A DNA stretch of 64,000 bases, from the NCBI GenBank assembly GCA_963766445.1, contig CAVXZW010000029.1:28681-92680 (forward strand). Reading direction: 5' to 3'. Both the position numbers and the translations under genes were made by a program. This document shows, one piece after another, positions 2,868 through 29,429 of the stretch. The notes beneath the pieces were generated by a model, which saw only the letters and a program-made list of their open reading frames with translations, was not told the DNA's origin and made no database searches. Numbering within the stretch: the stretch's first letter is position 1; every line of letters starts with the position of its first letter. The stretch is from an uncultured Actinomycetes bacterium (GTDB lineage Bacteria > Actinomycetota > Thermoleophilia > Gaiellales > JAICJC01).

Positions 2868-3959
2868 CCGCCCTGCTGGTGCTCGAGGACGGCACGGTGT
2901 TCGAAGGCGAGGCCTACGGTGGAACCGGTACTGCGGTCGGCGAGCTGGTGTTCATCACGTCCATGACCGGCTACCAGGAGATCGTCACCGACCCGTCGTT
3001 CGCCGGCCAGATGATCACCTTCACGCAGCCGATGATCGGCAACTACGGGGTGGAGGCCGATGCCTCCGAGTCGGACCGGCCGCAGGCGCGGGCGGTGATC
3101 GTACGCGAGGGCCGAAACGCCGCGCCGGCGGGGCGCGTGGGCTTCTCTGACTGGTTGGCCGGCCACGGTGTAATCGGCATCCAGGGGCTCGACACGCGCA
3201 TGCTGACGCGGCGCCTGCGCGACGGCGGCACCATGCGCGCGGCCGTCTGCTCGGATGGAACGCCGGTGCCGCAGCTGCTGGCGCTGATCGGCGGCGAGCC
3301 GGAGATGGCCGGGCAGGCGCTGGCCGGCGAGGTGTCGTGCGTGCGGGCCGAGCAGCTGCCGGCCCTGGCGCCCGAGCTTGCCCACGTGGTGGTGCTCGAC
3401 TACGGGGTGAAGGGGTCGATCGTACGGATTCTGCGCGAGCAGGGCGCCCGGGTGACCGTGCTGCCCTGGAACGCCACGGCCGAGCAGGTGCTCGAGTTGC
3501 GCCCCGACGGCGTGCTGCTCGGCAACGGACCGGGCGATCCGGCCGCGCTGCCCGGCTGTGTGTCGGAGGTGCGCGAGCTGGTCGGGCAGGTACCCGTGTT
3601 CGGGATCTGCCTGGGCCATCAGCTGCTGGGCAGGGCGCTCGGCCTGGAGACCTTCAAGCTCCGGTTCGGCCATCGCGGCGCCAACCACCCGGTGCTGGAC
3701 ATCGACACGGGGCGAGTGCTGGTAACGGCCCAGAACCACGGCTTCGCGGTGCGCGTGCCCGCCGGAGGAGGCGACCTCGACACCGATTTCGGGCCGGCCC
3801 GCGTCACCCACGTCTCGCTCTACGACGGCACCGTCGAGGGCCTGGCGCTGCGGGAGCTGCCCGCCTGGTCGATGCAGTTCCACCCCGAGGCCAGCCCCGG
3901 GCCGCACGACGCCCGCGAGGCGCTGGAGCGGTTCGTGGGGTCGCTGACGGAGGCCACCG

Positions 3960-3973: not shown

Positions 3974-7121
<3,148 letters not shown>

Positions 7122-25570: not shown

Positions 25571-26422
25571 GTGACAGGACTGCTGCTCGTCGACAAGCCC
25601 GCGGGACCGACGTCGTTCGCGGTGATCCGCCGGCTGCGGCCGCTGACCGGCCCGAAGGTGGGGCACGCCGGCACGCTCGACCCGTTCGCGACCGGCCTGC
25701 TGCTGGTGCTGGCAGGGCGGGCGACGCGGCTGGCGACGTTCCTGTCCGGCCTGGACAAGCGCTACCACGCGGTCGTGCAGTTCGGTGCGGTCTCCTCGAC
25801 GCTCGACCCGGAGGGGGAGATCTCGCAGACCGGCGGGCGGACGGACGCCGCCGCCGTGGAGGAGGCGGCGTCCGCGCTCACCGGCGAGGTGCTGCAGGAG
25901 GTGCCGCTGGCCTCGGCCGTTCGGGTCGATGGAGAGCGCTCCTACACGCGCATGCGGCGGGGCGAGATGGAAGCGCCGCCGCCGCGGATGGTGACGATCG
26001 AGCGGCTGGACGTGGTCTCGTTCGACGAGGGGGCACAGCGGGCGGTGATCGACGTGCGCTGCTCGAAGGGCACGTACGTCCGCCAGATCGCGGCCGACCT
26101 GGGTGCCGCGACGGCGGCCGGCGGCTACTGCAGCGAGCTGCGGCGCACGGAGGTGGGGGAGTTCACGGTGGATCGGGCGGCCTCGCCTGAGCGGATCCTG
26201 GAGGATGGCGAAGGGCCGTGGATGATCCAGCCGCGCGAGGCGCTGCCGCACCTGCCCGAGCGGGTGCTGGACGGCAGCGAGCTGGAGGATGTGCTGCACG
26301 GGCGGATGCTGCCGGCGGCTGGTGAGACGGGGCCCGTGCGGCTGGTGCACGACCGGCGGCTGGTCGCGATCGGCCGCCCGGACGAGCGCGGATTGCGACC
26401 GGCCGTGGTGCTGGGCCTGTGA
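25571..26422 (+). CDS. truB: tRNA pseudouridine-55 synthase
   Basis: GTG at 25571. Motifs 'LLLVDKPAGPTSF' and 'GHAGTLDPFATGLL'. Confidence 0.92.
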   Translation: MTGLLLVDKPAGPTSFAVIRRLRPLTGPKVGHAGTLDPFATGLLLVLAGRATRLATFLSGLDKRYHAVVQFGAVSSTLDPEGEISQTGGRTDAAAVEEAASALTGEVLQEVPLASAVRVDGERSYTRMRRGEMEAPPPRMVTIERLDVVSFDEGAQRAVIDVRCSKGTYVRQIAADLGAATAAGGYCSELRRTEVGEFTVDRAASPERILEDGEGPWMIQPREALPHLPERVLDGSELEDVLHGRMLPAAGETGPVRLVHDRRLVAIGRPDERGLRPAVVLGL

Positions 26423-27357
26423 TCGAGACCAGCCTCGATCGGGCCGAGCCGGCGGCACGCACCGTGGCGCTGGGCAGCTTCGACGGCGTCCATCTCGGCC
26501 ACCGGCGCGTGATCGAGGCCGCGATCGCGGCAGCGGCAGAGCGCCGGACGCGCTCGAGCGTGGTCACGTTCGAGCCGCATCCGATGGTGGTGCTGCGCCC
26601 CGAGCTGGCTCCCCACGAGCTGTCCACGCCGGAGCGGCGGTCGCAGCTGGTGGCAGAGCTGGAGCCGGACGAGCTGATCGTGATCAGCTTCGACCATGCC
26701 TTCTCACAGATCGAGCACGACAAGTTCGCAGAACAGGTGCTGCACGACGCCCTCGATGCGCAACTGGTGATCGTGGGCCGCAACTATCGCTACGGGCACC
26801 GCGCGCAGGGGTCGATCGAGACGCTGGCAGCGTCCGGGCAGCGGCTCGGGTTCGAGGTGCAGCCGGCGCCGCTGCTGGAGCTGGACGGCGCGCCGGTCTC
26901 GTCGTCGCGGATCCGCGACCTGTTCGGGGCGGGGGAGGTCGAGCATGCGGCGCGGCTGCTGGGAAGGGCGCCGTGGCTGGAGGGCACGATCGTGCGCGGC
27001 GATGGGCGCGGCCGCGAGCTGGGCTTTGCGACCGCCAACCTGGAGTCGGCGCCGCGAAGTGCGATGCCGGCGATCGGCATCTACGCCGGGCGCGCGCACC
27101 TGCCGGGGGAGTCGCACGCGGCGGCGATCAGCGTCGGCTACAACCCGACCTTCTCGGACGAGCGGGAACGCGTGCGCGTCGAAGCGCACCTGCTTGACTT
27201 CGACCGGGACATCTACGGGGAGCCGCTGCTGATCGAGTTCATGCGGCGGCTACGCGGCGAGCAGCGGTTCGGCACGGTCGAGGATCTGGTCGCCCAGGTG
27301 CACCGCGACATCGACGCCGTCCGCGCCGAGCCGCTGGTCTGGCAACCGCTCGGGTGA
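26419..27357 (+). CDS. ribF: Bifunctional riboflavin kinase / FAD synthetase
   Basis: Motifs 'GSFDGVHLGHRRV' and 'GDGRGRELGFATANL'. GTGA overlap with truB. Confidence 0.92.
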   Translation: MIETSLDRAEPAARTVALGSFDGVHLGHRRVIEAAIAAAAERRTRSSVVTFEPHPMVVLRPELAPHELSTPERRSQLVAELEPDELIVISFDHAFSQIEHDKFAEQVLHDALDAQLVIVGRNYRYGHRAQGSIETLAASGQRLGFEVQPAPLLELDGAPVSSSRIRDLFGAGEVEHAARLLGRAPWLEGTIVRGDGRGRELGFATANLESAPRSAMPAIGIYAGRAHLPGESHAAAISVGYNPTFSDERERVRVEAHLLDFDRDIYGEPLLIEFMRRLRGEQRFGTVEDLVAQVHRDIDAVRAEPLVWQPLG

Positions 27358-27632
27358 TAGAGAGGTGCCGGGCACCGTCGTACCACCCGCGACGTCGCCG
27401 TGACCCGTACGCGACGGTCCGGCCGTGCGGGTGGAACGGGGGTGCCGGGCACCGTCGTCACGCGCGTGACCGCGGCGTGACCTGCTGGTAACAGACGGGT
27501 ACTACCAGAACGTTGCGGCGAGACAACGGCCGCTGCGACGGTGCCTGGCACCGGCGTTCCAGAGGGTGTCACCTGGAGGTTGCGGGAGCGCAACGGCCGC
27601 TGTGACGGTGCCCGGCACCTCTCTATCACCCG
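27351..27632. repeat. 282-bp structured intergenic element: 29-nt perfect terminal inverted repeats plus four copies of the palindrome GGTGCC(G/C/T)GGCACC
   Basis: Left arm 27351-27379 (cgggtgatagagaggtgccgggcaccgtc) is the exact reverse complement of the right arm 27604-27632. Palindrome copies lie at 27364-27376, 27441-27453, 27540-27552 and 27607-27619. The element fills the whole gap between convergent ribF and the S51 peptidase gene. Confidence 0.85.
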
Positions 27633-27633
27633 T

Positions 27634-28314
27634 CTACAGGTTGCGCACCGCCAGCGGCTGCGGGCCGCCGGCTTCCACGCGGAAGGCGCGGCCGCCGGGG
27701 GCCTCGCTGACCGCCTCGGCAAGCTCGGTGCCGCGGAACACCAGCCCGACCCCGTCGTCCGCCGCATAGCCTGCCGGCAGCACGCCTTCGGCCACCCACC
27801 GCTCGTACGTCGGCTTCCGCAGCAGCTCGCCGTCGTAGTGCGGGCAGAAGCTCCCGGCAAGGAAGCCGAGCCCGTCGTTCAGCGGTGCCAGGTCAGGCCC
27901 GAACGAGTCGGTCGAGCACGCGTCGAACCAGCAGTTCGCGCCGGCCGATACGCCCGCCAGCACGATCCCGCGCGACCACGCCTCGCGCAACACCACGTCC
28001 ACGCCGTGCAGCCGCCAGATCGCCAGCATGTTGGCCGTGTTGCCGCCGCCCACGTAGATCACGTCCTGCGACAGCAACAGCTCCGCGATGTCGGAGACCT
28101 CGCGATGGAACAGCGTCAGCACCGACAGCTCGGCCATCCCCGCCAGCCGCTCCCGCACCAGCTCGATCCACTCGGCCGCATCGCCGCCCGCGGTCGGCAG
28201 GTAGCAGGCGCGCGGCCGCTCGGCACCGGTCAGCTCCAGGATGAACCGCCGCAGCCCGCCCTCCTCACCGGCGAACCCGCCGCCGCCGAGGGCGACGATG
28301 CACGGCTCGCTCAC
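27634..28314 (-). CDS. Peptidase S51 family (dipeptidase E / cyanophycinase-like)
   Basis: GTG at 28314 overlaps the UXS stop (GTGA). Motifs '[12 protein letters not shown]' and '[11 protein letters not shown]' (Ser nucleophile motif). Confidence 0.75.
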
Positions 28315-29249
28315 GTCGCGACTGCGGTCACACCCAGACTCTCGAGCGTGCGGCGAAGACCCTCTTCGAGCGCCACCTTCGGCTCCCAGTCGAGCACCTC
28401 GCGGGCACGGGTGATGTCGGGCTGGCGCACCTTCGGATCGTCCTCGGGCAGCCCTTCGTAGACGAGCTCCGACGTCGTCCCGGTCATCCGCTGGATCACG
28501 TCGGCCAGCTCCAGGAGCGTCATCTCGTTGGGATTGCCGATGTTCACCGGCATGTGGTAGTCGCTCATCGTCAGCCGGAAGATGCCCTCGATCAGATCGT
28601 CCACGAAGCAGAACGACCGCGTCTGGCTGCCGTCGCCGAAGATCGTGATCGGCTTGCCCTCCAGCGCCTGGCGGATGAAGTTGGGGATCGCGCGCCCGTC
28701 GTGCTGGCGCATCCGCGGCCCGTAGGTGTTGAAGATGCGCACGATGTGCGTGTCCACGCCCTGCTGGCGGTGGTAGGCCATCGTCAGCGCCTCGGAGTAG
28801 CGCTTGGCCTCGTCGTAGACGCCGCGCGGCCCGACCGGGTTCACGTTGCCCCAGTACTCCTCGCGCTGCGGGTGCACCTCCGGGTCGCCGTAGACCTCGG
28901 ACGTCGACGCCAGCAGAAAGCGGGCGCGCTTGAACTTGGCCAGGCCCAGCGCGTTGTGGGTGCCGTAGGAACCGACCTTGAGCGTGTGCAGCGGCAGCCG
29001 CAGGTAGTCGACCGGGCTGGCGGGGCTGGCCAGGTGGAACACCGCGTCCACCGGCTCGTCCACGTCGATGAAGTCCACGCAGTTGTGGTACCGGAACTCG
29101 AACCGGTCCTCGCGCAGGTGCTTGACGTTCATCAGCGACCCGGTGTCGAGGTTGTCCAGGCAGATCACGCGCCACTCGCGCGCCAGCAGGTACTCGCAGA
29201 GATGGGAGCCGAGAAAGCCCGCTCCGCCGGTGACTACCGCAGTGCTCAC
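28311..29249 (-). CDS. UDP-glucuronate decarboxylase (UDP-xylose synthase), SDR family
   Basis: GTG at 29249. Motifs '[12 protein letters not shown]', 'STSEVYG' and 'YDEAKRYSE' (YxxxK). Confidence 0.88.
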
Positions 29250-29429
29250 GCCGATCTGCCCCTCTCGATGGTGAACGGTTCCGGCCAAGCGTACATGCGC
29301 CGGCCCGCGGCAAGCCCGGACCAGGCCCTGTGCTACCCTGCCCCTCGACCGCATCGCGGATCGGCGCAGCTTGCCGGCGTCGTTCTGGGTTGTCGGCGTC
29401 TAGCTACGACTGGCAAGGAGGTGGTAGGC

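Follow-up and report, generated by a model that had tools for sequence, protein, structure and literature searches.

The 282-bp spacer between the convergent genes ribF and S51 peptidase, in a 64,000-nt stretch of contig CAVXZW010000029.1 from an uncultured Gaiellales bacterium (this whole stretch is hereafter called the window), does not form one structured element but consists of four repeat copies joined by short linkers. We consider it highly probable (roughly 88%) that the spacer is a cluster of the kind formed by repetitive extragenic palindromes (REPs) and bacterial interspersed mosaic elements (BIMEs), and that its four units belong to a dispersed family, at the level of a Gaiellales genus, with a REP-associated tyrosine transposase (RAYT) system of the TIRYT type. 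The four units make two inverted pairs, the one enclosing the other, much as in a BIME or a compound REPIN.

Architecture of the ribF-S51 spacer

An earlier note, made from the letters of this DNA, had described the gap as one structured element with perfect 29-nt inverted arms and four palindromes GGTGCC(N)GGCACC, and had offered as readings a MITE- or REP-cluster-like element and a very large bidirectional terminator or cruciform. The arms (27351-27379 and 27604-27632) were indeed complementary at 29/29 positions, and the 29-mer was found at these two sites only in the 64-kb window, even when up to three mismatches were allowed (expected 0). The palindrome GGTGCCNGGCACC was present exactly at 27364, 27441, 27540 and 27607, giving the spacings of 77, 99 and 67 nt that had been reported, with no further exact copy in the 64 kb; allowing up to one mismatch gave six matches in the window as compared with a mean of 0.75 in shuffled sequences, and none of 100 shuffles reached six. 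Also visible in the sequence were the nested stems and a direct repeat, caacggccgctg(c/t)gacggtgcc. The left arm holds the TGA of ribF while the right arm ends just short of the S51 stop codon, as had been noted.

The description of the gap as one unit did not survive. Read in one orientation, every palindrome stands between CGGGTG-N7 and GTC(G/A), and a profile of 107 distinct units from other genomes, from which the window was excluded, split the spacer into exactly four units when run with nhmmer (E 9e-18 to 5e-7). These repeats of about 66 nt follow one another in the order > > < <, separated by linkers of 11, 10 and 5 nt (Table 1). Beyond the four units, the sole match in the window below E 0.1 was a weak echo of unit 1 on the opposite strand (E 1e-4); outside the element the profile gave no match better than E 3.5, and blastn-short and nhmmer yielded no further copies of the element elsewhere in the window.

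Table 1. Positions of the repeat units, their parts and the adjoining gene ends in the window
Feature	Position	Strand	Remarks
REP-like unit 1	27351..27416	+	nhmmer E 9.1e-18
Unit 1 parts	27351-27363; 27364-27376	+	head CGGGTGATAGAGA; core palindrome
Unit 1 tail boxes	27389; 27400; 27411	+	GCGAC; GTGAC; GCGAC (11-nt phase)
REP-like unit 2	27428..27493	+	nhmmer E 2.8e-14
Unit 2 parts	core 27441-27453	+	head CGGGTGGAACGGG (GAACGG subtype); core palindrome
Central linker	27494..27503		within ctggta...taccag stem-loop, between inward-pointing tails; no unit match
REP-like unit 3	27504..27561	-	nhmmer E 4.7e-07; most diverged copy
Unit 3 parts	core 27540-27552	-	head ...CTGGAACGCC; core palindrome
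REP-like unit 4	27567..27632	-	nhmmer E 4e-14
Unit 4 parts	core 27607-27619	-	head CGGGTGATAGAGA; core palindrome; variant tail GTCACAGCGGCCGTTGCG...GGTGAC
Left 29-nt arm	27351..27379	+	head, core and GTC of unit 1
Right 29-nt arm	27604..27632	-	exact reverse complement of left arm
ribF ORF	26419-27357	+	TGA 27355-27357, inside left arm and unit 1 head
S51 peptidase stop (TAG)	27634..27636	-	1 nt outside unit 4 and right arm

Each unit is laid out as a head, CGGGTG-N7, a 13-nt hairpin core, GGTGCC-N-GGCACC, and a tail that opens with GTCGTAACACCC, and the family consensus reads cgCGGGTG-aTAgaGA-GGTGCCGGGCACC-GTCGTA.CAccCGTgaC-N6-CGTgAC-N6-GTGAC. The three G(T/C)GAC boxes of the tail start 13, 24 and 35 nt past the core, which sets their spacing at exactly 11 nt, and conservation ends after the third box. 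The fold predicted for a unit on a single strand has two stems, CGGGTG/CACCCG on the outside and GGTGC/GCACC on the inside, with an internal loop between them. When the region was folded as a whole, it gave much lower energies than shuffled sequences on both strands, with -203 kcal/mol on the plus strand (z -10.1) and -194 kcal/mol on the minus strand (z -10.2), and 0 of 100 shuffles was as good in either case.

The neighbouring 559-aa open reading frame (ORF) on the minus strand (27634-29313) has its S51 domain confined to residues 340-531. Relatives have an S51 gene of 227-229 aa followed by a separate 312-aa epimerase gene, from which it follows that the long N-terminal part of the 559-aa ORF is not peptidase.

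Dispersal of the repeat in sister genomes

The pattern GGGTG-N7-GGTGCCNGGCACCGT, with 19 specified bases, was scanned against the contigs of one genome per species (GTDB) and matched at least 112 stretches. Among the matches listed, 56 of 112 stretches, with about 78 pattern matches, came from eight metagenome-assembled genomes (MAGs) of Gaiellales/Thermoleophilia, seven of which gave at least 5-10 stretches each. The remaining matches listed were mostly single stretches from unrelated organisms, with unrelated flanks and without the head or tail consensus. Six of the family-bearing MAGs overlap the window at 93-97% nucleotide identity. A 15-base pattern, GGTGCCNGGCACCGTC, was discarded as a probe for the family; viral contigs gave single, apparently chance matches to it among the matches listed.

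When the profile was run on 408 kb of family stretches (among the matches listed), it delimited 122 units in 63 clusters, namely 22 singlets, 20 inverted doublets, 8 tandem pairs, 8 triplets and 5 clusters in the > > < < arrangement, which also occurs at a second, unrelated locus. Two head subtypes, ATAGAGA and GAACGG, stand side by side in the family. In tandem arrays an ATAGAGA unit is followed 77-79 nt on by a GAACGG unit (L150, L219, L227 and L200; L-numbers denote retrieved sequence stretches of relatives' genomes), like units 1 and 2 of the window. Rough gene calls, based on GC content at third codon positions (GC3), put 33 of the 59 clusters that could be evaluated no farther than 120 nt from one or more gene 3' ends; 7 of the 33 stand between convergent ends, and 8 of the 59 are inside an ORF. 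The exact 28-mer core of the arm was present in at least three to four stretches in each of five MAGs and in at least one stretch of LS_ISSM.

One copy lies within a gene of relatives: head and core stand in frame, at L157 4536-4575, inside the ORF of a 1412-aa Lhr-like helicase (L157 1210-5448, MFD05442), where they are translated as ...PPAGDREVPGTVVTCV... The flanks of this site are the same in seven MAGs (L157, L156, L163, L197, L202, L216 and L220), and these shared flanks indicate a conserved intragenic copy.

The 13-nt core was also seen outside the family. Other Actinomycetota MAGs hold a second family that shares this core, in the form of near-perfect palindromes of about 37 nt, for example GGGTGAATAGAC-GGTGCCTGGCACC-GTCTATTCACCC, in L212, L232, L239 and L240 (MFD09368), L175, L205 and L217 (MFD03975), and L144 and L223 (MFD08988), and repeated ggtgcc(w)ggcacc was seen in Steroidobacteraceae L229 and Iamia L203.

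A RAYT gene framed by copies of the repeat

Two stretches, each belonging to a different MAG, have one plus-strand and one minus-strand unit exactly 843 bp apart, with an ORF of 240 aa between them. The protein encoded at L154 3650-4372 matched the equivalog NCBIfam family NF047646, 'REP-associated tyrosine transposase', with 103 bits against a cut-off of 80, and Pfam Y1_Tnp at 1.6e-14. Its residues 211-239 scored just below the Pfam cut-offs for HTH_23 (22.9 bits) and Sigma70_r4_2 (22.4 bits). It also matched Escherichia coli TnpA_REP (PDB 4ER8) at E 5.8e-9, in an alignment that placed NHYH on the HUH motif (HMH) and YIPLNP on the motif of the catalytic tyrosine (YIYINP).

The gene in L154 is framed by cgGGTGATAGAGAGGTGCCGGGCACCGTCGT (3551-3579) and by an inverted copy 843 bp away, and the 28-nt core of this flank is the core of the window arm, letter for letter, an identity that holds in four of the five MAGs with a RAYT gene. 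Repeat-flanked RAYT genes were found in L154, L209, L230, L133/L213 and L204; in each of these five MAGs the gene is single, with 81-100% identity among them, and is accompanied by the same neighbours, a BMC-domain gene and a gene for a 154-aa protein. The earlier note had proposed to look for a RAYT/IS200-like or other cognate transposase elsewhere in the genome; tblastn found no RAYT gene in the 64-kb window, the five sister MAGs being where it was located. Its reading of the spacer as a REP cluster is upheld by both results, a dispersed family in sister genomes and a RAYT gene there flanked by inverted copies of the arm.

The dominant head subtype of each genome tracks the copy beside its RAYT gene. 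LS_ISSM has the most diverged RAYT (82% identity) and a flank head of GAACGGA, and GAACG-type heads make up 13 of its 15 sampled units. Among the other well-sampled MAGs, ATAGAGA is dominant in five of six, and ATACAGA in MFD04967.

RAYT homologues are abundant in soil metagenomes, where pipelines label them "REP element-mobilizing transposase RayT" or "transposase [Gaiellales bacterium]". Many contigs with close homologues are only 1-2 kb long, as is expected if assemblies break at the flanking repeats.

The orthologous site in relatives

The homologues of the window's RibF bear names such as "Gaiellales bacterium". In relatives with a RibF 75-78% identical to it, the gene order is kept and the ribF-S51 gap measures only 19-22 nt, with no unit; in GCA_036403155.1 it is 19 nt long. 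RibF ends in ...VWQPLG* in the window (27343-27357), where the TGA comes from the repeat head GGGTGA, and in ...VWR* in the element-less relatives (L003, L006); the insertion has thus put a new stop codon in place of the old one and lengthened RibF by four residues. The earlier note had held that an arm unique to this locus, together with orthologous gaps lacking it, would argue against a repeat family. Of these two, the arm proved to be dispersed in sister genomes, while gaps without the arm do exist, in the distant relatives only.

Close relatives (93-97% nucleotide identity) show the element in differing states. Four cores are present in the window, in L005 (a short-read contig) and in L214, and three in L002, L147 and L210, all of which lack the segment corresponding to window 27454-27539. 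As it is found in three independent assemblies, the three-core form is real. L199 retains the outer pair around a different interior, and L001 has one diverged, double-headed hairpin. The variant tail type of unit 4 is found on the S51 side in L147, L208 and L210 as well. According to Quentin et al. (PMC6006769), a central deletion in an inverted dimer gives rise to a "double foot" unit; the middle core of the three-core form looks like such a unit.

L001 comes from an error-prone long-read contig with frameshifted gene calls, and in both L001 and L002 (contigs in the style of ENA long-read assemblies) the calls are fragmented or fused, with ribF of 394 aa and 257 aa, a NusA+RimP fusion and a truncated IF-2. 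This damage points to indel errors, which make the fine details of the element uncertain there, especially the single hairpin of L001. The idea that L001 and L002 are simple collapses of the window element was rejected, L001 being a diverged double-headed unit and L002 sharing its three-core form with two other assemblies.

At L214 ~4055-4338 (MFD04967), the ortholog of window 27351-27632, the flanking modules are swapped and inverted with respect to the window, and the central ~20 nt, ggtaacagac(g/t)gtactacc, keep the orientation seen there. From this arrangement we suspect flip-flop inversions that involve inverted repeats nested at two levels. The arms co-vary, with ATAGAGA/TCTCTAT in the window and ATACAGA/TCTGTAT in L214.

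Comparison with known systems

The reference systems are the REP/BIME and REPIN elements with their RAYT (TnpA_REP) of E. coli and Pseudomonas (PMC3116915, PMC3337134, PMC6006769). The Gaiellales family resembles them in having short palindromic units, dispersed mostly extragenically, as singlets, inverted doublets and clusters; in the two unit subtypes that alternate in arrays, comparable to Y and Z of BIMEs; in a single syntenic HUH-Y1 gene framed by inverted repeat copies (a REPtron); and in the lack of target duplication and the occasional in-frame copies within genes. It differs from them in its long unit (~66 nt), the tail of which carries three helically phased G(T/C)GAC boxes, in a transposase of the long type with a C-terminal helix-turn-helix (HTH), in its host, a Thermoleophilia actinobacterium and not a proteobacterium, and in an apparently moderate abundance, with one cluster in the 64 kb of the window.

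The TIRYT genes and TIRtrons of Di Nocera et al. (2013, PMC3733652) correspond to TnpA_Y1 subclass 2.1, or Bertels group 1, of Quentin et al. (2018, PMC6006769), which is characterized by a median length of 238 aa, a C-terminal HTH extension and the motifs NH[YF]H, FQ and Y[IV]HLNP (Table 1 of PMC6006769). By motifs and length, the Gaiellales RAYT fits this long, HTH-bearing type: it has 240 aa, an HTH_23-like C-terminal extension, the motif NHYH, which conforms to NH[YF]H, and FQ, while YIPLNP departs from Y[IV]HLNP at one position. Di Nocera et al. (PMC3733652) reported that some TIRYT-flanking repeats make up families of moderate abundance, with dimers and clusters, and the Gaiellales gene is similarly flanked by long inverted repeats that form such families. 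The head CGGGTGAT agrees with the TIRYT motif GGGGWSAS (PMC3733652) at 6/8 positions and is not an exact match, and the tail box GTGAC fits its GWSAS part.

The family recalls the ends of IS200/IS605 elements (IS608, ISDra2) in its HUH-Y1 enzyme, in subterminal hairpins that would be recognised in single-stranded form and in the absence of target duplication; unlike in these insertion sequences, the Gaiellales transposase gene is single-copy, syntenic and does not travel with the repeats, and the ends are symmetric inverted copies instead of two hairpins on the same strand. The core hairpin has CGTC at its 3' edge (GGCAC-CGTC), a feature of the CGTC-tagged REPs, which have stems of 8-9 bp starting with A/T pairs, loops of 4-5 nt, a CCA tail and no associated transposase (PMC3733652). 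Membership in that group was ruled out, as the core here is a 5-6-bp, all-GC-rich stem with a loop of 1-3 nt. A CRISPR array and an integron attC were also discarded: the units, whether inverted or in tandem, have no unique spacers between them, and the associated enzyme belongs to the HUH-Y1 type instead of being Cas or IntI.

Quentin et al. (PMC6006769) recorded no class 2 genes in the large-genome Actinobacteridae that they sampled. In our literature search, no paper linked a REP-associated tyrosine transposase to Actinobacteria, or REPs to Gaiellales. As to novelty, we rate the composite unit as somewhat unusual and the host lineage as not yet described for REP/RAYT systems.

Proposed mechanism and points against the main explanation

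The steps that we propose are taken from the mechanism of TnpA_REP and IS200/IS605 (summarised in PMC6006769). By analogy, the RAYT would recognise the hairpin into which the single-stranded DNA folds, with the replication fork as the probable place, and would cut and rejoin beside it, thereby spreading units and inverted doublets without target duplication. Such seeding may have placed units or doublets at the ribF-S51 site, displacing the original stop codon of ribF. Later, slippage between the 13-nt cores, or recombination between them, could have reshaped the cluster, the cores being palindromes and hence direct and inverted repeats at once; this would give the three-core deletion form and the inverted isomer. 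For movement of the repeats by the enzyme the evidence is indirect, namely the presence or absence of the element at the ribF-S51 site and the way in which the dominant subtype tracks the copy beside the RAYT gene.

A role at the ends of RNAs, in termination or in protection from exonucleases, has been described for enterobacterial REPs. By the same comparison it is plausible, as a weaker proposal, that the hairpins act as a 3'-end barrier of either kind for both convergent transcripts.

A more far-reaching version, which we regard as distinctly unlikely, would see in the family a REPIN-like population of Thermoleophilia that is as yet undescribed and has as its driver a subclass 2.1/TIRYT-type RAYT with dual recognition of the unit. 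The HUH-Y1 domain would read the hairpin core on single-stranded DNA, while the C-terminal HTH would bind the three G(T/C)GAC boxes, one helical turn apart, on duplex DNA. To our knowledge, such dual recognition of a hairpin and of duplex boxes is undescribed for REP systems.

Several points weigh against a REP/BIME-like cluster served by a TIRYT-type RAYT. RAYTs of the long, HTH-bearing type are not known to carry out cleavage or transposition. The hairpin lacks the canonical GT[AG]G at its foot, where the consensus reads cgCGGGTGaTAgaGA-GGTGCCGGGCACC-GTCGTA and neither GTAG nor GTGG stands beside either stem on either strand. Single units fold no more stably than shuffled sequences (z -1.1 to -1.7), which rules out the idea of each unit as an unusually stable hairpin; the fold of the whole region is exceptional because the units are paired inversely (1 with 4, 2 with 3). 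The scan of both strands from 26900 to 28100 gave 0 terminator-like sites with a hairpin plus T-run, which leaves a role at the RNA level without support from the sequence. The number of copies per genome is a lower bound only, of at least about 7-10 stretches in each of the best-sampled MAGs, and the GC3-based gene calls round the clusters are rough. For the window's own genome we infer both the multi-copy status and the cognate gene from sister species, because the 64 kb seen of it hold one cluster and no RAYT gene. Finally, Quentin et al. (2018, PMC6006769) report no REP-like sequences adjoining subclass 2.1 genes, whereas the repeat that flanks the Gaiellales gene has a true hairpin and is dispersed.

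Alternative explanations

It is conceivable, if unlikely, that the repeats are relics which the RAYT, possibly domesticated, no longer moves, and that slippage, template switching and recombination by the host alone built the cluster and continue to reshape it. Recombination between cores could yield all the differences seen among close relatives (three versus four cores, the inverted isomer and the collapsed hairpin), many of the sampled loci are orthologous across MAGs rather than new insertions, and the RAYT gene is present once and in synteny, as a housekeeping gene would be; Bertels et al. 2017 (PMC5581495) have argued for a likeness of RAYTs to domesticated genes. However, five MAGs each hold the exact 28-nt arm at no fewer than three to four stretches, the RAYT flanks included, and the dominant subtype changes together with the copy that flanks the RAYT when LS_ISSM is compared with the other MAGs, a sign that copies are still being made from a master. 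The element is also missing from the orthologous gap of more distant relatives, indicating that it arrived by some insertion process.

We give little credence to any of the remaining explanations. That the spacer is a locally duplicated bidirectional terminator or cruciform, kept by selection at this locus with no mobile family behind it, would account for the filling of the whole gap between convergent genes, the extreme fold energy on both strands and the conservation among close relatives with a compensatory change in the arms; it is very improbable, being already contradicted by the dispersal of the same units at many unrelated loci and round a transposase gene, by the lack of a T-run terminator and by relatives in which a gap of 19-22 nt suffices. 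The strong predicted structure and the position in the 3' regions of two genes would also suit a structured non-coding RNA expressed from the spacer (a small RNA, a 3'UTR regulator or a riboswitch-like element). We hold this to be scarcely credible, since the structure is symmetric on both strands, the copies lie in both orientations with respect to neighbouring genes, one of them in frame inside the helicase gene, and the promoter/terminator scan around the spacer gave no promoter-like site; against this explanation and the locus-specific one alike, there was no match to an Rfam family at E<=1 in 26000-29000. The earlier note had also offered a likeness to a miniature inverted-repeat transposable element (MITE). 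A classical MITE would be a deletion derivative of a DDE-type insertion sequence moved in trans, and perfect 29-nt terminal inverted repeats, a length of about 280 bp and the lack of coding capacity do fit one. This origin is nevertheless extremely doubtful: the flanks, accgct/CGGGTG ... CACCCG/tctaca (slashes mark the element borders), show no target-site duplication, the interior is made of the same repeat unit, which is also found single and in tandem, and the only gene found framed by the arms encodes an HUH-Y1 enzyme, with no DDE gene found so framed.

Significance

The finding opens no new kind of biology. On the practical side it carries a warning, in that close strains differ in the copy number and orientation of the clusters, which break assemblies or confuse them, and it provides a 66-nt profile that is usable for annotating the family. 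The repeats rewrite gene ends, as seen in the ribF stop codon taken from the repeat, and in relatives a copy stands in frame in an Lhr-like helicase gene. The REP-cluster reading extends REP/RAYT-type repeats to an uncultured lineage of soil actinobacteria, the Gaiellales. It also connects RAYTs of the long, HTH-bearing type, the DNA partners of which have been poorly defined, with a repeat that is dispersed and contains a hairpin.

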